64,000 bases of DNA, taken from NCBI GenBank assembly GCA_035630545.1, contig DASQKK010000084.1:3405-67404 (forward strand). The letters are read 5' to 3'. Position numbers and translations under genes: made by a program. The DNA is from Gaiellaceae bacterium. Its GTDB lineage: Bacteria; Actinomycetota; Thermoleophilia; Gaiellales; Gaiellaceae. Within the stretch, counting starts at the first letter, position 1, and each line of letters begins with the position of its first letter. Below the pieces are notes generated by a model. The model saw only the letters and a list, made by a program, of their open reading frames with translations, ran no database searches and was not told the DNA's origin. Shown here piece after piece: positions 12,289 to 39,633 of this stretch.

Positions 12289-13256
12289 TAGAACGCGAGC
12301 AGCGAACGGGCCGCGTCGACCACCCGCTCGACGGACGGCATGTACGCGTCCTCGATCTGCCAGTACGGGTACGGGACGTCGTACCCGGTGACGCGGACGA
12401 CCGGCGCCCGCAGGTCGAGCAGCGCCTTCTCGGCCAGGATCGCCGCCAGCTCGGCCGCGTAGCCGCACGTGCGCGGCGCCTCCTGCACGAGCACGACGCG
12501 GCCCGTCTTCGCCGCGGTCGCGAGCAGAGCCACTTCGTCGAGCGGCTTCAGCGAGCGGAGATCGAGCACCTCGACCGAGGCGTCGAGCGCATCAGCCGCC
12601 TGCTCGCAGACCGGCACCATCGCCCCGTACGCGACGAGCGTGACATCGGTTCCCTCCCGCACCAGACGTGCCTTCCCGAGCGGGACGACGTGCTCGCCGC
12701 CAGGCACTTCGCCTCGCTCGGTCCTGTAGACGAGCTTCGGCTCTAGGATCACGACCGGGTCCGGATCCCGGATGGCGGCCGCGAGCAGCCCCTTCGCATC
12801 GGCAGGCGTCGAGGGGACGGCGACCTTGATCCCGGGCGTGTGCACGTAGTACGCCTCGGGCGAGTCGTCGTGCAGCTCGGGCGCGCGCACGCCGCCGCCG
12901 TACGGCATCCGGATCGTGATCGGGAACGTCATCTTCCCGCCGGTCCGCCAGCGGTAGCGGCCGACGTGGGTGATCAGTTGGTCGAGGCAGGGGTACGAGA
13001 ACGCGTCGTACTGCATCTCGCAGACCGGCCGGTAGCCCGCCATGCAGAGCCCGACCGCGGAGCCGAGGATGCCCGCCTCGGCGAGCGGGGTGTCGACGCA
13101 GCGGTCGGGGCCGAAGCGGTCGCGGAGCCCTGCCGTCGCGCGGAAGACGCCGCCGGCGCGGCCGACGTCCTCACCGAGGACGAGCACGTCCGTGTCGCGC
13201 TCCATCTCGACGTGGAGCGCGTCGTTGACCGCCTCGACGAGAAAGAGCTCAGCCAC
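12288..13256 (-). CDS. 2-oxoacid dehydrogenase E1 component beta subunit
   Basis: ORF track, 322 aa. VLVLGEDVGRAGGVFRAT, DTPLAEAGILG. Confidence 0.93.
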   Translation of the reverse strand: MAELFLVEAVNDALHVEMERDTDVLVLGEDVGRAGGVFRATAGLRDRFGPDRCVDTPLAEAGILGSAVGLCMAGYRPVCEMQYDAFSYPCLDQLITHVGRYRWRTGGKMTFPITIRMPYGGGVRAPELHDDSPEAYYVHTPGIKVAVPSTPADAKGLLAAAIRDPDPVVILEPKLVYRTERGEVPGGEHVVPLGKARLVREGTDVTLVAYGAMVPVCEQAADALDASVEVLDLRSLKPLDEVALLATAAKTGRVVLVQEAPRTCGYAAELAAILAEKALLDLRAPVVRVTGYDVPYPYWQIEDAYMPSVERVVDAARSLLAF

Positions 13257-13280
13257 TCTCGCGCTCCTGGCCGGCTCCCG

Positions 13281-13306
13281 CTCCCGCCGGGCAAAGCCCG
13301 GCTCCG
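13281..13306. repeat. short hairpin repeat, copy A (family CTCCC-stem-AAA-stem-TCCG)
   Basis: CTCCCGCCGGGCAAAGCCCGGCTCCG, identical to 63630..63655. The reverse complement resembles 19538..19563 with compensatory stem changes. Confidence 0.55.
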
Positions 13307-13421
13307 CGGGCCCCTCGCCACGCTGACGGCCCCGGGCTCTTCGGCCCCGTACCGCCGTACTGTGACCTCCGGCCCAGCCCCGTCAGCACGGCGCCAGGAC
13401 CACAAGAGCTGCGTGACTCCG

Positions 13422-14489
13422 TCACTTGCCGAGGATCCTGCGCAGCTCGGCGAGATCGTGGGCGAACGAGTCGGGCGGGTTCGCGAGCGCATGCTCGAAG
13501 ACGAGGCCGGCGTCGGCCGCGGGCTCGGCCTCTGCGGCCGCGATCCCCGCGCGCATGACGTCCGCCGCCTCGGACTTGATCTGCTCGTCGAGCGCGTCGT
13601 GCAGGATCCCCTGCCGGCGCAGGTAGCCGGCGAAGCGGCCGACGCACTCGTTCGCCCGCTCCTCCTCCACCCGCTCGAGATCGATGTACGCCTTCGGGTC
13701 GTCGGCGGTCGCATGTGGCGCCGCGCGATAGGTGACGGCCTCGATGAAGGTCGGCCCGTCCCCGGCGCGGGCGCGCGCAACGCCCTCGCGCGCGGCCTCG
13801 TAGACGGCGAGCACGTCGCCGCCGTCCACACGGGTCCCGGGGATCCCGTAGCCGGCGGCCTTGTCCACGAGCGCCTCCGCCCGCGTCTGGGCCGAGAGCG
13901 GCGTCGAGATCGCCCACTGGTTGTTGTTGCAGAGCAGGACCAGCGGCGCGCGCATGACGGCGGCGAAGTTGGCGCCCTCGTGGAACGCGCCCTCGGAGGT
14001 GGCGCCGTCGCCGAAGAAGGTCAGCGCGCAGGCGCTTTCGCCGCGCAGGCGCTTGCCCCACGCCAGCCCGGCAGCGTGGGGAACCTGGGTTGCGATCGGG
14101 ACGCAGATCGAGGCGACGTTGTAGTCGGCGGGGTTCCACCAGCCCGCGGGATGCCCGCGCCACCAGGAGAGGATCGTCGCCGCCGGCATCCCCCGCAGCA
14201 GCCCGATCGCCGACTCGCGGTAGCTCGGAAAGATCCAGTCGTCGTCCTCGAGCGCATGCACGGCGCCGGCCTGGATCGCCTCGTGGCCCCAGAAGATCGC
14301 GTACGTCCCGATCCGGCCCTGGCGGTGGTACACCACCGAGCGCTCGTCGTAGGTCCGCAGCAGCACCATCGAGCGATAGAGCGCGAGCAGTTCCTGCTCG
14401 CCGACGCCTTCGACCTCTCCGTCCGGGATGGTGTCGCCGTCGCCGATCACGCGGCGGAGGTCTCGCTCCGCGGGCATCGTGCTCGCCAT
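13422..14489 (-). CDS. 2-oxoacid dehydrogenase E1 component alpha subunit (TPP-dependent)
   Basis: Internal ATG (MASTMPAERD) of ORF 13422..14867. TPP motif FFGDGATSEGAFHEGANFAA...NNQWAIS. Confidence 0.9.
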   Translation of the reverse strand: MASTMPAERDLRRVIGDGDTIPDGEVEGVGEQELLALYRSMVLLRTYDERSVVYHRQGRIGTYAIFWGHEAIQAGAVHALEDDDWIFPSYRESAIGLLRGMPAATILSWWRGHPAGWWNPADYNVASICVPIATQVPHAAGLAWGKRLRGESACALTFFGDGATSEGAFHEGANFAAVMRAPLVLLCNNNQWAISTPLSAQTRAEALVDKAAGYGIPGTRVDGGDVLAVYEAAREGVARARAGDGPTFIEAVTYRAAPHATADDPKAYIDLERVEEERANECVGRFAGYLRRQGILHDALDEQIKSEAADVMRAGIAAAEAEPAADAGLVFEHALANPPDSFAHDLAELRRILGK

Positions 14490-14509
14490 TCCGGCGCGGA
14501 CGATACCTC

Positions 14510-15730
14510 TCAGGGAAGGGCCAGCGCCCGCGCGAGCACCGGATCCCTGCCGGCGAGGACGTCGGCCGCCGTGGGCTCGACGGCGACGTCCGGCTCGACC
14601 GCCAGGCGTTTGTCGCCGGGCGCGACCTCGACCCATTCGGCGGCGACGTAGGCGGTCACGCCGGCGCGGGGGAGCTCGATCGGGATCCGATCGCCCCACT
14701 GATTGGGAGCTCCTCCGGTCGGCTCGCCGACGAGCATCGCATTCGTCTCGTGATCGACCGACGCCACGAAGTTCCCCGCAGCGGAGAACGTCATCCGCCC
14801 GGCCAGGACCGCAACCTTGCCGCGCTCCCGGAGCGGCCCGCTCTTCAGCAGCTCGACCAGCGACCAATAGGTCGTGTTGTCGCCGCCGCCGTTGTAGCGG
14901 GCGTCGATCACGAGCCGATGGAAGTCGGGCCGCCGCGCCGCCGCGAGGATGCGGTCGAGCAGCTCCTGCGGCGCGCTCTCGACGTGCCGGTACCCGAGAT
15001 ACAGCGAGCGGCCGCGCTCGAGCGGCTCGAGCAGGAAGGACTCGTCGAGGCCGCGGTACTGAAGCGGGTCGCCCGGCACCGGCAGCGGGGCGAACGCGGT
15101 CCCGAGCGCCTGCGCATACACATGGGACTCCACCGGCTCGAGCGTGACGCTGCTGCCGTCGGCGAAGCGGTACGTCGCCGCGCCCTTGACGGTCCCGAGC
15201 CCCCGCAGCACCTCGGCGCAGACGAGGTACTCGGGCAGCAGCAGCCGCACCGTCGAGGCGTTGTCGCGCGGAATCAGCGGCTCGACCCGGTCGACGACGT
15301 CCTCGATCGGGACGCCGTCCACGGAGACGACCCGTTTCCCGACGTGTGGCGTCCCGTCCAGCTCCGCGACGACATGCACGCCGTCGGCGAAGTCGTGGAC
15401 GCGCAGCGGGAAGAAGTGGAACGGCCGCGCGTGTGCCGGGTCGTGCAGGAAGATGCCGCCGTGGCCGTCGCGCTCCCCGAGCGTCGTCAGCCGGAGAAGG
15501 CCGACGACGAGCTCGTCGCGTGTGAGCTCGGGCGCCTTGGCGGCCAGGGCCCGCGCCTCCGCCCGCAGCTCATTCAGCGGCACCTGATGGTCGGCCTCCG
15601 GATGGAGGCTCGCCATGTCGGTGACGAGACCGGTGATCTCCCGCTGCAACGGCGTGGGCGCCGCCTGCTCCTCGTCGCCGCCGCAGCCCGCGACCACCAG
15701 TGCCAGCGCAGCGGCGGCGAGTGCGCGCAT
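14510..15730 (-). CDS. S41 family peptidase lipoprotein
   Basis: ORF track, 406 aa. Lipobox LVVAGCGG. VIDARYNGGGDN and MTFSAAGNF resemble the S41 catalytic region. Confidence 0.75.
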   Translation of the reverse strand: MRALAAAALALVVAGCGGDEEQAAPTPLQREITGLVTDMASLHPEADHQVPLNELRAEARALAAKAPELTRDELVVGLLRLTTLGERDGHGGIFLHDPAHARPFHFFPLRVHDFADGVHVVAELDGTPHVGKRVVSVDGVPIEDVVDRVEPLIPRDNASTVRLLLPEYLVCAEVLRGLGTVKGAATYRFADGSSVTLEPVESHVYAQALGTAFAPLPVPGDPLQYRGLDESFLLEPLERGRSLYLGYRHVESAPQELLDRILAAARRPDFHRLVIDARYNGGGDNTTYWSLVELLKSGPLRERGKVAVLAGRMTFSAAGNFVASVDHETNAMLVGEPTGGAPNQWGDRIPIELPRAGVTAYVAAEWVEVAPGDKRLAVEPDVAVEPTAADVLAGRDPVLARALALP

Positions 15731-33563: not shown

Positions 33564-34043
33564 CTAGCTCGGAGCGAGCCGCCGCCGCGCCTCGTCGATG
33601 ACCTGCTCGGCCTCGGCGCGGTTGCCGTAGCCCCGCGTCTCCGTCTTCTTCTCCTCGAGGTCCTTGTAGACCTGGAAGAAGTGCTCGATCTCGTCACGGA
33701 ACTCGGAGGGGATGTCGTGGATGTCGTGCACGCGCATCCACGCCGGATCCTTGAGCGGGACGAGGATCACCTTCTCGTCCGGCCCCTTCTCGTCGGTCAT
33801 GTGGAAGACGCCGACGACGCGGGCCCGGATACGGCAGCCGGGGAACGTCGGCTCACCGACGAGCACGAGCGCGTCGAGCGGGTCACCGTCCTCGCCGAGC
33901 GTCCCCTCGATGAAGCCGTAGTCGGCCGGATAGCTCATCGAGGTGAAGAGGCGCCGGTCGAGCACGACGTGGCCCGTCTCGGCGTCGACCTCGTATTTGT
34001 TCCGCGAGCCCATCGGCACCTCGACGAAGACCATGACGTCCAT
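33564..34043 (-). CDS. ppa: inorganic pyrophosphatase (family I)
   Basis: Last 159 aa of ORF 33564..35072. NKYEVD, YPADYGFI, EDGDPLDALVL. Confidence 0.93.
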   Translation of the reverse strand: MDVMVFVEVPMGSRNKYEVDAETGHVVLDRRLFTSMSYPADYGFIEGTLGEDGDPLDALVLVGEPTFPGCRIRARVVGVFHMTDEKGPDEKVILVPLKDPAWMRVHDIHDIPSEFRDEIEHFFQVYKDLEEKKTETRGYGNRAEAEQVIDEARRRLAPS

Positions 34044-34068
34044 GGTCGCCGAGCCTACACTCGGTCGG

Positions 34069-36438
34069 ATGGACCCGAACGCGCTCGACGTGCTGGAGTT
34101 CCCGGCGATCCAGGAGCGGGTTGCGCGTGCGACTGCGACCGACTTCGGCGCTGCGCTCGCCGCCGGCCTCGAGCCGTCGCCCGACCCGGAGGAGGTCGCC
34201 CGGCGCCAGGCGCTGACCGCCGAGGCGATCGGGCTCCTGGAACACTCGCTCGAGCCGCCGCTGGAGGGGATCCGCGACGTGCGCGAGCAGGCGGCGCACG
34301 CGGCGCTCGGCGGCGCGCTCTCGCCCGCGGCGCTGAGGCACGTCTCCGACACGGCCGCCGGCTCGCTGCGGGCGCGCGCAGCGCTCGACGACGCCCCGGC
34401 GCCGCTGCTCCGCGCACTCGCCGAAGCCGTCGACCCTGCGCTGGCGGCTGTCGCAAAGGCGATCGACCGCGCCGTCGAAGAGGACGGCTCCGACCTGCGC
34501 GACAACGCCTCGCCGAAGCTGCGCAAGTTGCGCGGCGAGCTCCGCACCGGGCGGCAGCGGGTGCGCGACAAGCTCGAGCAGCTCGTGCGCTCGAGCGAGC
34601 TACGCGAGCACCTGCAGGAGGAGTTCATCACCCTGCGCGGCGGCAGGCCGGTGCTCGCGGTCAAGGCGAGTGCCCGCCGCAGCGTGCCCGGGATCGTCCA
34701 CGACGCCTCCGACTCGGGCCAGACGCTCTTCGTCGAGCCCTTCGACGTCGTCGAGCTCTCCAATCGCCAGTCGGAGGCGGTGAGCGCGGAGCGGGACGAG
34801 GTCGAGCGGATCCTGCGGGAGCTCTCGACCGCCGTCGGCGAGGCGGCCGCACTGCTGACGGCCGGCGTCGAGGCAACGGGCCGGATCGACCTGTCGCTGG
34901 CGCTCGGGACGCTCTCACGCGGCTGGAAGGGGGCGGCGGTCGAGGTGTCGGAGGAGGTGCGGCTCGCGGCGGCCCGCCACCCGCTCCTCGACCCGAAGCT
35001 CGCCGTTCCGATCGACCTCGATCTCGGCACCTTGCGCGCGCTCGTGATCAGCGGTCCGAACACCGGCGGCAAGACGGTGGCGCTGAAAACGCTCGGGCTC
35101 GCCGCGCTCCTGCATCAATCAGGCCTCCGGCCTCCGGCTGAGACGGCCGCCCTGCCCGTCTTCGACCAGGTGCTCGCCGACATCGGCGACCGGCAGTCGA
35201 TCGAGATGAGCCTCTCGACGTTCTCCGGCCACGTCGCCAGCATCGTCGCGATCCTGAACGCCGCCGGCGAACGCTCGCTCGTGCTGCTGGACGAGCTCGC
35301 CTCGGGGACCGATCCGGTCGAGGGCTCTGCGCTCGCGCAGGCGCTCGTCGCGCGGCTCGCCGAGCAGGCGCGGCTGACGCTCGTCACGACCCACTATCCC
35401 GAGCTGAAGGAGTGGGCGAGCGCGAGCGAGGGTGTCGCCAACGCGGGCACCGGTTTCGATCCGGAGACCGATGCGCCCCTCTACCGGATCGCCCTCGGCA
35501 GGCCGGGAACGTCGCATGCGCTGCAGATCGCCGAACGCCTCGGGCTGGACACCGGCGTCGTCGCCGACGCGCGCGAGCTCGTGACACCGGAGCGGCTTCG
35601 GATTCAAGAGCTGCTCGCGGAGACGGAGTCGGCCGAGCGGGCCGCCGTCGACGAGCGCGCGTCGGCCGAGGCGGAGCGGGCCGAGGCCGCCCGGGTCACA
35701 GAGGATGTGCGCGAGCGGGAGCGGGAGCTGGAGGCCGAGATCGCGGCGGTGAAGGCGTCGGCCGCCGCGGAGCGTGAACGGGCCGCGGCGGAGGCGCAGC
35801 GAGATCTGGCCGCCGCCCGGGAGGAGCTTGCGGCGCTGCGTGAGGAGATCCGGGTCGCCCGACGGCGCGACCGCGAGTCGAGGCGGGCGACCCCGGCCGC
35901 CGCCCGCGAGCGCGACCGCCGCCTCGGGGCCGCCGCGGATCGCGCGGTGCGGGCGGAACGGGCGATCCGCGAGCTCGACGAGCCGCTCCCCTTCACTGGG
36001 CCGCTCGCGGCCGGCGATCCGGTCGAGGCGCCGGGGCTCGGCGTGCACGGGACGATCGCGGCGATCGAGGGTGACGAGGCCGAGGTGGTGGGGGCGGCCG
36101 GCCACCGGCTGCGGATCCCACTCGCGCGGCTGCGTCCCTCGCGCAAGCGGGAGCCGGAGCCGGAGGAGGTCCCGGTCACGGTCGTCGCGATGGCGAGTGC
36201 CGACGTCTCCGACGAGCTCGACGTGCGCGGGCAGCGGGCGCAGGAGGCGCGGGAGGCCGTCCGGTCTTTCGTCGACGACGCGGCCCTGGCGGGACTGCCG
36301 AGCGTCCGCGTCATCCACGGCCGCGGCACGGGTTCGGTGCGGGCTGCCGTGCGGGAGGAGCTGGACGGCCATCCGCTCGTCGACCGGCGCGAGAGCGATT
36401 CTGCCGACGGCGCCACGATTGTCCACCTCGAGGGCTAG
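34069..36438 (+). CDS. mutS2: endonuclease MutS2 (MutS domain plus C-terminal Smr)
   Basis: In frame with ORF 33943..36438. MDPNALDVLEFPAIQERV, Walker A GPNTGGKT, Smr VIHGRGTGSVR. An alternative ATG at 34042 is possible. Confidence 0.92.
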   Translation: MDPNALDVLEFPAIQERVARATATDFGAALAAGLEPSPDPEEVARRQALTAEAIGLLEHSLEPPLEGIRDVREQAAHAALGGALSPAALRHVSDTAAGSLRARAALDDAPAPLLRALAEAVDPALAAVAKAIDRAVEEDGSDLRDNASPKLRKLRGELRTGRQRVRDKLEQLVRSSELREHLQEEFITLRGGRPVLAVKASARRSVPGIVHDASDSGQTLFVEPFDVVELSNRQSEAVSAERDEVERILRELSTAVGEAAALLTAGVEATGRIDLSLALGTLSRGWKGAAVEVSEEVRLAAARHPLLDPKLAVPIDLDLGTLRALVISGPNTGGKTVALKTLGLAALLHQSGLRPPAETAALPVFDQVLADIGDRQSIEMSLSTFSGHVASIVAILNAAGERSLVLLDELASGTDPVEGSALAQALVARLAEQARLTLVTTHYPELKEWASASEGVANAGTGFDPETDAPLYRIALGRPGTSHALQIAERLGLDTGVVADARELVTPERLRIQELLAETESAERAAVDERASAEAERAEAARVTEDVRERERELEAEIAAVKASAAAERERAAAEAQRDLAAAREELAALREEIRVARRRDRESRRATPAAARERDRRLGAAADRAVRAERAIRELDEPLPFTGPLAAGDPVEAPGLGVHGTIAAIEGDEAEVVGAAGHRLRIPLARLRPSRKREPEPEEVPVTVVAMASADVSDELDVRGQRAQEAREAVRSFVDDAALAGLPSVRVIHGRGTGSVRAAVREELDGHPLVDRRESDSADGATIVHLEG

Positions 36439-37064
36439 ACCGGCTCCTCGACCACCTTCGCTGCGTAGAGCTGATACGGGAGCGCCTCGAGCACGCGCAG
36501 GCGTGGCTCCGGCACGTCGAAGAAGCGCGCGAGCGCGAGCGGCTGCAGCCACGCCAGGTCGGCTCGCGACTCGAGCACGCGGGCGACGGCCGCGCGGTCA
36601 CCGCCGAGTGCGACGCGGTCGACGCGTTCCCGCCAGGGACCGAGCACCCGGGCCGCCTCGGACGCCGCCGCGTCGACGAGCTCCCGCTCCTGCTCACCCC
36701 GCCGGCGGCGAAAGCGGTTGGACGAGGAGCCGCCCTTCTTGTGCCGACCCTTGACGAATCGCGTGCCGACCTTCGACGCGACGAGGCGCTCGCCCTCGAA
36801 GACGCCGGCTGCGTACCCGCCCATCCGCACGAGCAGGACGGCGACCGTCGGCGCGGCCGCCAGCGCGTCGAGCAGCGGGTCGACGCGGAGCACCTCGTAC
36901 TCGCCGTCGTGATCGAGGCCGAACGGCGGCGTCACGGTCAGCACGGCCTCGTCGAGCTCGAATCGGGCGCTGCCGGCGGCATAGAGCGCGCGACCCGGTG
37001 AGCCCGAGAAGGCGCGGACCCGCTTCGCGACGTTGTCGCGACCGATGTAGCGAGTCTCCGTCAC
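36435..37064 (-). CDS. acVLRF1-like (Vms1/ANKZF1-type, eRF1-fold) peptidyl-tRNA hydrolase
   Basis: GTG at 37064 in the frame of ORF 36435..38921. RMGGYAAGVFEG...FVKGRHKKGGSSSNRFRRRRGEQ aligns with the eRF1 GRGGQSALRFARLR loop, with Q replaced by S. Confidence 0.72.
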   Translation of the reverse strand: MTETRYIGRDNVAKRVRAFSGSPGRALYAAGSARFELDEAVLTVTPPFGLDHDGEYEVLRVDPLLDALAAAPTVAVLLVRMGGYAAGVFEGERLVASKVGTRFVKGRHKKGGSSSNRFRRRRGEQERELVDAAASEAARVLGPWRERVDRVALGGDRAAVARVLESRADLAWLQPLALARFFDVPEPRLRVLEALPYQLYAAKVVEEPV

Positions 37065-37082
37065 CGCGGCCACAATGGCAGG

Positions 37083-38642
37083 ATGACAACGACACACGGA
37101 ACTTCGACCGCGAACCAGCCGCCGCCGCTCGCGGGCTACAACCTCTACGAGCAGGACATCGCCCTGGTCGAGGGGCTGCGCCGGGAGGGTGGCAGCCCCT
37201 GGGAGGAGAGGGTCGCCGCGTTCGGCGAGCTCCTCGGCGGCGAGCCGCTCGAGTGGGGCCGGCTCGCAAACGAGCATCCGCCGCGGCTGCGGTCGCACGA
37301 CCGCTACGGCGAGCGTGTCGACGAGATCGAGTTCCACCCGGCCTGGGACTCGCTGCTCCGGGTCGGGCTGAAGGCGCAGGTGCAGTCGCTGCCCTGGGCG
37401 GAGCCGGCGACCGGCGCCCACGTCGCACGGGCAAGCCTGTTCATGCTGCTCGGCCAGGTCGAGGCCGGTGTCGGCTGCCCGCTCTCGATGACGTTCGCCG
37501 CCGTGCCGGCGCTGCGTACGCACCTCGACCTCGCCGAGGAGTGGATCCCGCGGCTGATCGCGGGCGAGGCGCTCTGCGGGATGGCGATGACGGAGCGTCA
37601 GGGAGGCTCCGACGTGCGCGCGAACGAGACGACGGCGCGGCCGGTCGGGGAGGCGTGGGAGCTGAACGGTCAGAAGTGGTTCTGCTCGGCGCCGATGAGC
37701 GATGCGTTCCTCGTGCTCGCGCAGGCGCCGGCCGGGCTCTCCTGTTTCCTGCTCGAGCGGCCGCAGCCCGGCTTCCGGATCGAGCGGCTGAAGGACAAGC
37801 TCGGCAACCGCTCGAACGCCTCGGCCGAGATCGCGCTCGACGGCGCGGTCGCCACCCTCGTCGGCGAGGAGGGGCGCGGCCTCCGGACGATCCTCGAGAT
37901 GGTCAACCACACGCGGCTCGACTGCGTGCTCGGCTCGACGGCGCTGATGCGCCGGGCTGTCGCGGAGGCGACGCACCACGCCGCCCACCGCGCCGCCTTC
38001 GGCAAGCTCCTCGCCGAGCAGCCGCTGATGCAGAACGTGCTCGCCGACCTCTGCGTCGAGTCGGAGGCGGCGACCGCGACGGCGCTCCGGCTCGCACGCG
38101 CGCACGACGAGGACGACGGCCCGTTCCGGCGGATCGCGACCGCGGTCGCGAAGTTCTGGATCTGCAAGCGGACACCACCCCTCGCCGCGGAGGCGCTCGA
38201 GTGCCTGGGCGGCAACGGCTACGTCGAGGAGTCGCAGCTGCCACGCCTCTTCCGCGAGAGCCCGCTCAACTCGATCTGGGAGGGATCGGGCAACGTCAAC
38301 GCGCTCGACGTCCTGCGGGCGCTCGGCAGGGAGCCGGAGACGGCGGAGGCCTTCCTGGCCGAGGTGCGGCTCGCGGCCGGAGCGGACGCGCGTCTGGACG
38401 CCGGCATCGCGCGTCTCGAGCACGAGCTCGCCGATCCCGAGGAGCAGAGCGCCCGGCGGCTGCTGGAGCTGCTCGCGGTGACGCTGCAGGGCTCGCTGCT
38501 CGTCCGCCACGGTGCGCCGGAGGTCGCGTCGGCGTTCTGCGCTTCGCGGCTCGACCGCCCCGGCGGGGTCTACGGGACGCTGCCGGCGGGCCTCGACCTG
38601 GAAGCGATCGCCGAGCGGCATCGCCCGCGGCTCGACGGCTAA
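37083..38642 (+). CDS. AidB-like acyl-CoA dehydrogenase family protein
   Basis: ORF track, 519 aa. MTERQGGSDVRANET, WFCSAP, IWEGSGNV. Confidence 0.88.
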   Translation: MTTTHGTSTANQPPPLAGYNLYEQDIALVEGLRREGGSPWEERVAAFGELLGGEPLEWGRLANEHPPRLRSHDRYGERVDEIEFHPAWDSLLRVGLKAQVQSLPWAEPATGAHVARASLFMLLGQVEAGVGCPLSMTFAAVPALRTHLDLAEEWIPRLIAGEALCGMAMTERQGGSDVRANETTARPVGEAWELNGQKWFCSAPMSDAFLVLAQAPAGLSCFLLERPQPGFRIERLKDKLGNRSNASAEIALDGAVATLVGEEGRGLRTILEMVNHTRLDCVLGSTALMRRAVAEATHHAAHRAAFGKLLAEQPLMQNVLADLCVESEAATATALRLARAHDEDDGPFRRIATAVAKFWICKRTPPLAAEALECLGGNGYVEESQLPRLFRESPLNSIWEGSGNVNALDVLRALGREPETAEAFLAEVRLAAGADARLDAGIARLEHELADPEEQSARRLLELLAVTLQGSLLVRHGAPEVASAFCASRLDRPGGVYGTLPAGLDLEAIAERHRPRLDG

Positions 38643-38651
38643 GCTCGGCTC

Positions 38652-38876
38652 GTGGCCGTCGAGATCCACTACTGCCCCGTCTGAAGCGGCTACGACCGAC
38701 GGGCCGCGAGTCTCGCGGCCGTGCTGAACGGCAACGGCGTCCCCGCCGAGATCGTCGAGGGCGCGAAGAGCCAGTTCGACGTGATCGCCGACGGCGAACT
38801 CGTCTTCTCGAAGCAGCGCGAAGGACGCTTCCCCGAGGAGGATGAGGTGCTCGGGCTGCTCGCTAGCTCCCGCTGA
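38652..38876 (+). CDS. SelW/Rdx-family protein with an in-frame TGA (putative selenocysteine at 38682..38684)
   Basis: MAVEIHYCPV-U-SGYDRRAASLAAVLNGNGVPAEIVEGAKSQFDVIADGELVFSKQREGRFPEEDEVLGLLASSR. CxxU-GY redox motif, with a hairpin 17 nt after the TGA. Confidence 0.6.
38702..38720 (+). promoter_or_regulatory. SECIS-like stem-loop
   Basis: GGCCGCGAG-T-CTCGCGGCC. The apex (GAGUCUC) contains G/U and lies 25-29 nt after the UGA. Confidence 0.4.
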
Positions 38877-39633
38877 AGCGGGGCTCGCGCTTCTCGAGGA
38901 AGGCCTGCACGCCCTCGGCAAAGTCGCCCGTCTCGGTCGCGGCCTGCTGCAGCTCCGCTTCGAGCTCGAGCTGCTCCTCGAGGGTCGCGTCGTAGGCGTG
39001 GTCGAAGAGACGCTTCGTCATTCCGATCGCGCGCGTCGGCAGCGCCGCGAAGGTCGCCGCCACCTCGGCCACGTGCGCGGCGAGCCTGTCCGCCTCGACC
39101 ACCTCCGCGACGAGCCCCCAGGCCTCTGCCTCGGTGGCGCTCAGCCGCTTGTTGGTCGTCATCCAGTCGAAGGCGCGGGCGAACCCCAGCAGGCGGTGGA
39201 TGAACCAGGATCCGCCCGAGTCGGGGATCAGGCCGATCCCGATGAACCCGGGCACGAACGTCGCCGCGTCGGAGGCGATCCTGATGTCGCAGGCGGCGGC
39301 CAGCGACAGTCCCGCACCCGCGCAGGGCCCGTTGACCGCCGCGATCACCGGCTTTTCGAGCGCGCGGATCAGCCGGATGTTCGGGTGGTAGGTCTGCTCG
39401 AGCCGGTCGCGAATCGAGCCCGGGGCCTCCTGGAACTCCTTCAGGTCCTGACCGGAGCAGAAACCGCGGCCCGCGCCGGTGATCACGACCGCACGAACAT
39501 CCGACGAGCGCGCCTCCTCGAGCGCCTCGTGCAGGCGCGCGTGCAGCGCCGCGTTGAAGGCGTTGAAGACGTCAGGCCTGTTCAGCGTGATCGTCAGGAC
39601 GGCGCCGTCGCGCTCGCTCAGGACTTCGCTCAT
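38863..39633 (-). CDS. enoyl-CoA hydratase/isomerase (PaaG-like)
   Basis: ORF track, 256 aa. LNRPDVFNAF, GAGRGFCSGQDL, NGPCAGAGLSLA. Confidence 0.9.
   Translation of the reverse strand: MSEVLSERDGAVLTITLNRPDVFNAFNAALHARLHEALEEARSSDVRAVVITGAGRGFCSGQDLKEFQEAPGSIRDRLEQTYHPNIRLIRALEKPVIAAVNGPCAGAGLSLAAACDIRIASDAATFVPGFIGIGLIPDSGGSWFIHRLLGFARAFDWMTTNKRLSATEAEAWGLVAEVVEADRLAAHVAEVAATFAALPTRAIGMTKRLFDHAYDATLEEQLELEAELQQAATETGDFAEGVQAFLEKREPRFSGS

Follow-up and report, generated by a model that had tools for sequence, protein, structure and literature searches.

Does a UGA codon that interrupts a bacterial reading frame after only ten codons end a gene, or does it encode an amino acid? The question is raised by a locus in a 64,000-nucleotide stretch of DNA from a Gaiellaceae bacterium (Actinomycetota; Thermoleophilia; contig DASQKK010000084.1, positions 3,405 to 67,404 of the forward strand), which as a whole we call the window. 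On its plus strand, positions 38652..38876 hold a frame that resembles a small protein of the SelW/Rdx family, with a UGA at the place where the family has either cysteine (Cys) or selenocysteine (Sec). A reading of the DNA letters alone, made without database searches (the sequence-only reading), had proposed that this UGA is a selenocysteine codon and that the hairpin which follows it is a selenocysteine insertion sequence (SECIS). Here we examine the proposal by means of profile and structure searches together with a comparison among relatives, and these sequence comparisons lead us to regard the in-frame UGA as very probably the selenocysteine codon of a SelW-like gene, read by way of the downstream hairpin.

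SelW-like proteins with a CXXU motif are a long-established bacterial selenoprotein family, the most abundant one in the Sargasso Sea data, with few Cys homologues and a history of frequent mis-annotation (PMC1088965, PMC1794560). The bacterial SECIS is a stem-loop found immediately downstream of the UGA, and its small apical loop contains a G (PMC1088965).

An interrupted frame of the SelW/Rdx family

The frame opens with the GTG at 38652..38654, 10 nt beyond the stop (TAA) of an AidB-like gene, and encodes VAVEIHYCPV up to a TGA at 38682..38684; 63 sense codons (SGYDRR...SSR) and a second TGA at 38874..38876 follow. The latter, which we take as the true terminator, overlaps the 3′ end of a convergent enoyl-CoA hydratase gene. 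The start and both TGA codons are as the sequence-only reading had described them. Read through the first TGA, the predicted complete coding sequence (38652..38876, 74 codons plus stop) would yield the SelW-like protein M/V-AVEIHYCPV-U-SGYDRRAASLAAVLNGNGVPAEIVEGAKSQFDVIADGELVFSKQREGRFPEEDEVLGLLASSR, in which Cys8 (TGC, 38673-38675) and the predicted Sec11 (TGA, 38682-38684) form a C-P-V-U redox motif at 38673..38684. The translation, the full-length family match and the orthologues all support this extent. A GTG or ATG stands at the start position in 81 of the 84 loci compared, and the remaining three have an in-frame start one or more codons upstream.

Standard gene finders see only part of this frame. 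The mechanical list of open reading frames (ORFs) holds, in the SelW-like frame, a single 51-aa piece at 38721..38876, without strand 1, the CxxU motif and half of helix 1 of the fold described below, so the full gene is indeed invisible to the ORF track. The accompanying remark that both halves fall short of 60 aa needs correction: the frame after the UGA runs for 63 codons, and it is 51 aa long only when counted from its first start codon. The expectation that gene callers would truncate the gene agrees with the databases, where a protein search returned 624 homologues, the close ones being mostly 51-aa fragments that start at the equivalent of 38721. The few full-length homologues have W, G or C at the Sec position, and some homologues carry JGI labels such as ‘selT/selW/selH-like putative selenoprotein’ or ‘predicted Rdx family selenoprotein’.

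When C is written for U, the conceptual translation matches the Pfam Rdx profile (PF10262) at 43 bits (cut-off 22.6) over residues 3-69, which covers profile positions 2-71 of 74, and the NCBIfam profile TIGR02174 (CXXU_selWTH) at 42.4 bits (cut-off 34.2) over profile positions 1-72 of 74. The family that had been named from the motif pattern is thus recovered end to end, and C8-P-V-U11 aligns to the CxxC/CxxU position of the Rdx profile. Searched by itself, the part after the UGA scores 30.6 bits against the same profile and covers only its C-terminal half (positions 34-71), so the decapeptide before the UGA belongs to the domain. The profile search missed the equivalog cut-off of NF041051 (SelTWH_Campy; 54 vs 88 bits), and by this measure the window protein is a family relative that lies outside that equivalog. 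Sequence matches in the PDB include MIEN1, Atu0228 and a ‘Selenoprotein W-related protein’.

As a structure model we used the AlphaFold prediction for a natural Cys orthologue, P0003, which is 73% identical to the window protein and is modelled with a pLDDT of 95. The model runs from strand 1 (residues 2-7) through the CxxC loop into helix 1 (residues 14-27), followed by three strands and a C-terminal helix. The redox motif lies in the loop that joins strand 1 and helix 1, which is the arrangement of a beta-strand followed by C-x-x-U that had been anticipated from the letters. In a Foldseek search the best 23 PDB matches all belong to the Rdx family and thioredoxins come next, with TM scores of 0.85-0.90 for the SelW-related 2p0g, 2fa8, 2ojl and 2obk and of 0.71 for mouse SelW. 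Because strand 1 and the CxxU motif are encoded upstream of or at the UGA, the fold needs read-through. We consider it highly likely that 38652-38876 is one gene, encoding a 74-residue SelW-like (Rdx) protein with the presumed redox function of a thiol/selenol oxidoreductase.

Conservation of the UGA among relatives

One genome per GTDB species was scanned and relatives were found in 284 species. The best 80 of these 284, nearly all of them labelled Gaiellaceae, Gaiella or Thermoleophilia, were compared, and 20 kb around the window gene aligns to metagenome-assembled genomes of relatives over ~17 kb at ~88% identity, which marks the window as Gaiellaceae DNA. At the aligned codon the window, the related locus L001 and each of the 80 species genomes have TGA, with no instance of TAA or TAG. 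Across loci the predicted Sec codon is TGA in 82 of 84 and Cys8 is TGC in 84 of 84; the terminator of the same gene varies (TGA 50, TAG 33, TAA 1). Since TGA serves as an ordinary stop in the window, where it ends 23 of the 44 gene-like ORFs, the standard code applies and any recoding is local.

Whether relatives would have Cys or TGA at this codon had been left to comparison by the sequence-only reading, and in addition to the 80 TGA codons there is one Cys codon. The codon is TGT in L003, whose nearest relatives L038, L047 and L064 have TGA, a difference of one nucleotide; L003 is the single close Cys orthologue and lies on a 746-bp contig. At the Sec position the Rdx profile and the PDB homologues likewise have Cys. 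The Trp of the database sequences has another origin. Codon 10031-10033 of L001 is TGA, and the protein stored for it, P0002 (‘CPVW’), does not match the translation under table 11; because the DNA has TGA, this Trp is an artefact of translating TGA with an alternate code. We infer the same artefact in P0004, P0006, P0009, P0010 and P0011.

Codons other than TGA were seen at L003 165-167 (TGT), L088 193-195 (GGA, Gly) and L002 604-606 (GGG, Gly, within a run of eight G), each on one short metagenome contig and each with the hairpin intact. These variants may reflect a recent loss of Sec or, given the G-rich context, errors of sequencing.

If the UGA were a true stop, the locus would be a decayed or fossil selenoprotein gene from which at most a 10-residue peptide and/or a 51-aa C-terminal fragment is made. 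Such decay would agree with the lack of Sec machinery in the window and the related flanks, with the 51-aa ORF that callers report, and with UGA being the commonest stop codon in the genome. It would leave the pattern across 80 species hard to explain, however, for these species have all kept the codon as TGA, without a single change to TAA or TAG, along with the start, the reading frame, the surroundings of the CxxU motif and the protein sequence that follows, while their synonymous sites elsewhere are well mixed. The sequence-only reading had counted homologues that start past the TGA, with the VEIHYCPV segment unconserved, as evidence that would speak against a selenoprotein; what we find is that this segment and the GTG/ATG start are conserved, and that codon 24, the internal start of the callers, is Val in only 60% of sequences, so that the internal start is missing in about 40% of orthologues. 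The fold is a single domain predicted with high confidence, and the 51-aa piece would be missing both its strand 1 and its redox motif. Taken together, we judge a fossil gene to be very improbable.

A SECIS-type hairpin constrained as RNA

The inverted repeat GGCCGCGAG/CTCGCGGCC occupies 38702..38720 on the plus strand, 17 nt past the UGA. It had been described as a perfect 9-bp stem at this position and distance; the placement stands, but a ninth pair would leave an impossible 1-nt loop, and the repeat folds instead as an 8-bp stem (38702-38709 with 38713-38720) around a G-U-C loop (38710-38712), with an energy of -14.7 kcal/mol; within 141 nt of context its pairs have probabilities of 0.71-0.99. 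Its likeness to a bacterial SECIS, which had been pointed out from the position, agrees with the published consensus of a stem-loop just downstream of the UGA with a small G-containing loop (PMC1088965).

The stem begins at a distance of 17 nt from the UGA in every locus, with no insertions or deletions, and RNAalifold recovers the same 8-bp helix unprompted. In the alignment, 98.5% of cells are paired, as against 26-50% when the partners are slid by 1-3 columns. Both partners have changed in seven cells, a count that was matched in 0 of 500 shuffles; these cells belong to two pairs and show A:U for G:C in five sequences and U:A for C:G in two, and the one-sided changes at four further stem pairs mostly give G-U wobble.

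A selenoprotein gene may be real and the hairpin at 38702-38720 still be a by-product of coding the peptide RAASLAA, with the SECIS formed otherwise or with no defined hairpin at all. The peptide encoded by the stem does not vary, the Cys (L003) and Gly (L002, L088) variants still have the hairpin although they have no need of it, hairpins of this kind are frequent in G+C-rich DNA, and 12.6% of the bacterial selenoprotein entries in BSepDB have no canonical SECIS (PMC13326102). Synonymous codons can tell a constraint on the RNA from one on the protein. We took residues that are conserved in at least 90% of sequences and have 4 or 6 codons, of which 7 fall in the stem-loop and 15 elsewhere in the gene, and found a mean codon entropy of 0.28 bits in the stem-loop against 1.05 bits elsewhere (Mann-Whitney p = 0.003), so that the synonymous sites of the hairpin are far tighter than those of equally conserved residues. 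Ser20 uses AGT, a rare and G+C-poor codon whose T is the loop U, in 82 of 83 sequences; Leu21 is CTC in 84 of 84, whereas Leu25 has CTG, TTG and CTC; and Ala19 is GCG in 82 of 82, whereas Ala32 has all four codons. Synonymous sites that are nearly frozen in this way indicate a hairpin constrained as RNA. The rare changes either compensate each other or give wobble pairs, the distance from the UGA is invariant, and the loop matches the G-U-C apex of the Escherichia coli fdhF SECIS. Retention in the non-Sec variants has a precedent too, because SECIS-like hairpins persist in Cys forms derived from Sec forms, including recently converted ones (PMC1794560). That the hairpin is a coding by-product therefore seems to us very improbable. 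A hairpin not conserved at orthologous loci had been thought fatal to the selenoprotein proposal, and the one found here is kept in every orthologous locus, beyond the needs of the protein. The locus owes its significance to the comparison, in which all 80 species genomes share the TGA, the frame on either side of it, the hairpin and its 17-nt distance.

RNAalifold also proposes a weak 4-bp helix, GUCG/CGAC (38658-38661 with 38693-38696; A2 columns 23-26 with 58-61), which brackets the UGA. A change of Tyr14 from TAC to TAT retains a G-U pair in it, and there are zero two-sided changes; it is a candidate only.

Proposed decoding of the UGA

Translation would begin at the GTG at 38652, probably on a leaderless mRNA, and the ribosome would reach the UGA at 38682-38684 ten codons on. 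The G-U-C loop of the hairpin at 38702-38720 would be bound by SelB-GTP carrying Sec-tRNA(Sec), and when the UGA enters the A site Sec would be delivered instead of termination taking place. The product would have a Cys8-x-x-Sec11 redox centre at the start of helix 1, and translation would then run to the real stop at 38874-38876. Binding by SelB, insertion of selenium and the presence of sel genes elsewhere in the genome are inferred by analogy from the established bacterial SelB/SECIS pathway (PMC1088965; bioRxiv 10.64898/2026.03.03.709296).

Weighing the selenocysteine assignment

Several observations have to be set against a selenocysteine at this UGA. As a single sequence the hairpin has a fold energy that is unremarkable for DNA of 72% G+C (z = 0.07 and -1.41), and in 1.48 Mb of related DNA there are 247 hairpins with a GTC loop and a stem of at least 7 bp; alone, the hairpin is statistically ordinary, and so the case must rest on cross-genome comparison. 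There, covariation is found at just 2 of the 8 pairs, limited because the stem hardly varies, and since the stem encodes the conserved peptide RAASLAA, part of the hairpin's conservation is at the protein level. No Rfam SECIS family matches 38630-38800 at the gathering threshold or at E values up to 10, where the hits were at chance level; this means only that no curated model covers the hairpin. In the stretch before the UGA, a crude count of changes at the three codon positions of codons 2-10 (0.107, 0.106 and 0.078) has no third-position excess, so that this count alone cannot establish translation of the decapeptide; the stretch is also under constraint at the nucleotide level, with GTC for Val3 in 80 of 83 sequences and for Val10 in 77 of 77. 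What speaks for its translation is the match to the profile, the conserved start, the use of all four codons for Pro9, and conservative replacements such as H/F/Y at residue 6, A/R at residue 2 and V/T at residue 10.

The Sec machinery itself was looked for in the window and in 83 related loci, within 10 kb, 1.48 Mb altogether. No tRNA-Sec was found there with ARAGORN or Rfam, and tblastn with E. coli queries gave no match to selA or selD. The selB gene was likewise not found with the E. coli query, which returned weak matches only, and no FdhA homologue was found with E. coli FdhF. All these absences carry little weight for genomes of ~3 Mb. A literature search turned up no link between Gaiella or Thermoleophilia (Actinomycetota) and selenocysteine.

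Two apparent components were discarded. In L028, L032, L052, L060 and L063 a candidate SelB lies ~3 kb downstream of the Rdx gene; judged by its sequence, it is a GTPase of the EF-G/TetM type (627 aa at 13125-15008 (+) in L052, with the equivalent position in the other four). ARAGORN reported a 95-nt ‘tRNA-???’ with a 4-base anticodon at L004 3007-3101 (-), where Rfam has no tRNA, and we regard it as a false positive. A scan of the 1.48 Mb for other genes with an in-frame TGA and a GTC-loop hairpin found none, only out-of-frame TGAs and stops at gene overlaps.

Read-through might also occur without Sec. Downstream hairpins can promote stop-codon read-through in other systems, and a near-cognate Trp or Cys tRNA or a suppressor, stimulated by the hairpin, would then give a CxxW or CxxC protein. 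The Cys variant is evidently viable, and sel genes in the carrier genomes are a prediction. Yet the residue that defines the family is Sec or Cys (TIGR02174 CXXU_selWTH), and the W of the database entries is the alternate-code artefact described above. If Cys were the product, TGT or TGC would be the simpler codon, and it is seen once, on the 746-bp contig. The apex of the hairpin resembles a SelB-binding loop, and some Actinobacteria are established Sec users (PMC1794560; bioRxiv 10.64898/2026.03.03.709296). We hold Sec-free read-through to be extremely unlikely.

The failure to find the machinery could be taken at face value, in which case the Gaiellaceae would be without the canonical selA/selB/selC/selD set and the UGA and hairpin would be decoded by a SelB-independent mechanism. 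We give this bolder idea hardly any credence. A milder one is much likelier, namely that the Gaiellaceae are a large unreported Sec-using clade among the abundant soil Actinomycetota, in which the SelW-like gene is a near-universal selenoprotein of the clade, expressed from an mRNA that lacks a leader, Sec being inserted only 30 nt from its 5′ end. BSepDB reports 16,621 Sec-using species (PMC13326102).

Upstream signal and gene neighbourhood

The putative promoter of the predicted selenoprotein gene is the hexamer TAAGCT at 38640..38645 (+), a -10-like sequence of the form TANNNT that ends 6 nt before the start and overlaps the TAA of the AidB-like gene. In 80 of 84 loci a TANNNT precedes the start by 6-7 nt, among surrounding bases that vary (window 38640-38651, A2 columns 4-16), and a Shine-Dalgarno-like sequence is present in only 4 of 84. 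A scan for E. coli-type promoters upstream of the Rdx gene found nothing. Such a placement of TANNNT is typical of leaderless transcripts in actinobacteria and probably indicates one here; the Sec codon would then lie just 30 nt from the 5′ end of the mRNA.

Upstream of the Rdx gene lie a MutS2/Smr gene (33943-36438, +), a release-factor-like gene of the acVLRF1/baeRF type (~36435-37082, -; Pfam acVLRF1 123.5 bits, baeRF_family10 62.3 bits) and the AidB-like acyl-CoA dehydrogenase gene (37083-38642, +; Pfam AidB_N and Acyl-CoA_dh). Downstream, the last 14 nt of the Rdx gene are shared with the convergent enoyl-CoA hydratase gene (38863-39633, -), and beyond the latter on the minus strand follow a GNAT acetyltransferase and a second hydratase. 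Synteny with the Rdx gene is loose: of 83 loci, 52 have the hydratase next to it, 37 the AidB-like gene and 20 the pair of MutS2 and acVLRF1, and we draw no functional inference for the Rdx gene from its neighbours. A link between the acVLRF1 gene and UGA recoding was considered and rejected, as that gene travels with MutS2 and is near the Rdx gene only in those 20 loci. MutS2/Smr and the VLRF1-like factor look like a ribosome-rescue pair, and an acVLRF1-type gene is also present in L001 (7354-8001, -).

Comparison with known selenoproteins

The closest counterparts of the predicted protein are the bacterial SelW-like selenoproteins of the Sargasso Sea data and of Symbiobacterium thermophilum, Desulfotalea psychrophila and Desulfotomaculum reducens (PMC1088965, PMC1794560). 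Like them it is a small single domain with CxxU at the junction of strand 1 and helix 1, it has the same fold, a UGA followed by a stem-loop with G in the loop, few Cys homologues and a truncated or missed annotation. It differs in its host, a member of the Gaiellaceae (Thermoleophilia), a lineage for which our literature search found no report; in its length of 74 residues, at the short end of the range; in a SECIS that is nearly invariant over at least 80 species; in its probably leaderless mRNA; and in falling under the cut-off of the Campylobacter-type NF041051.

For a like-for-like comparison of the hairpin, the fdhF SECIS was taken from the E. coli genome. Both hairpins lie in the coding region just 3′ of the UGA and present an exposed G-U within an apical A-G(G)UC-U, the apex being GCA-GGUC-UGC in fdhF and GCGA-GUC-UCGC in the window. 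Counted from the U of the UGA, the loop G-U is at +23/+24 in fdhF and at +29/+30 in the window. The fdhF element is a longer, bulged helix that starts at the UGA and has a 4-nt loop, whereas the window has a perfect 8-bp stem and a 3-nt loop with no evident bulged U, and binding by SelB would be by analogy.

Among structures, mouse SelW (2npb) and MIEN1 (2ljk) share the Rdx thioredoxin-like fold (TM 0.71-0.77), have CxxU or CxxC in the same place and have a presumed thiol redox role; they are only ~24% identical, and the eukaryotic SECIS is in the 3′ UTR (untranslated region) and of another structure (PMC1088965). Phylogenies point to independent evolution of at least some of the family's members in bacteria and in eukaryotes (PMC1088965). 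The best structural matches are the Cys-containing Rdx proteins Atu0228 (2fa8), VcR75 (2p0g), BpR68 (2ojl), 2obk and SAV_2001 (3dex), with TM 0.85-0.90 and r.m.s.d. 1.2-1.8 Å over the whole chain, which are 22-30% identical and have Cys instead of Sec, with no in-frame UGA or SECIS.

Implications

The gene is of a known kind, and it leaves current views on the working of selenoproteins as they are. Possible novelties are the lineage of the host, the spread of the gene over 284 species, a nearly invariant SECIS and a probably leaderless mRNA. For annotation it offers a clean case of systematic error, in which public protein collections mostly show either a 51-aa fragment without the active site or a protein with a spurious Trp, for a gene with relatives in at least 284 species genomes of a dominant soil lineage. 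The near-invariant 19-nt hairpin would be a compact natural SECIS from a high-G+C lineage, suited to studies of recognition by SelB, and the leaderless start, if true, would place Sec insertion unusually near the 5′ end of an mRNA. The assignment further predicts that the carrier genomes hold a full set of sel genes along with FdhA or SelD selenoproteins (PMC1794560). Above all, it implies that the Gaiellaceae, aerobic and largely uncultured soil Actinomycetota, would use Sec, which bears on the cycling of selenium in soil.

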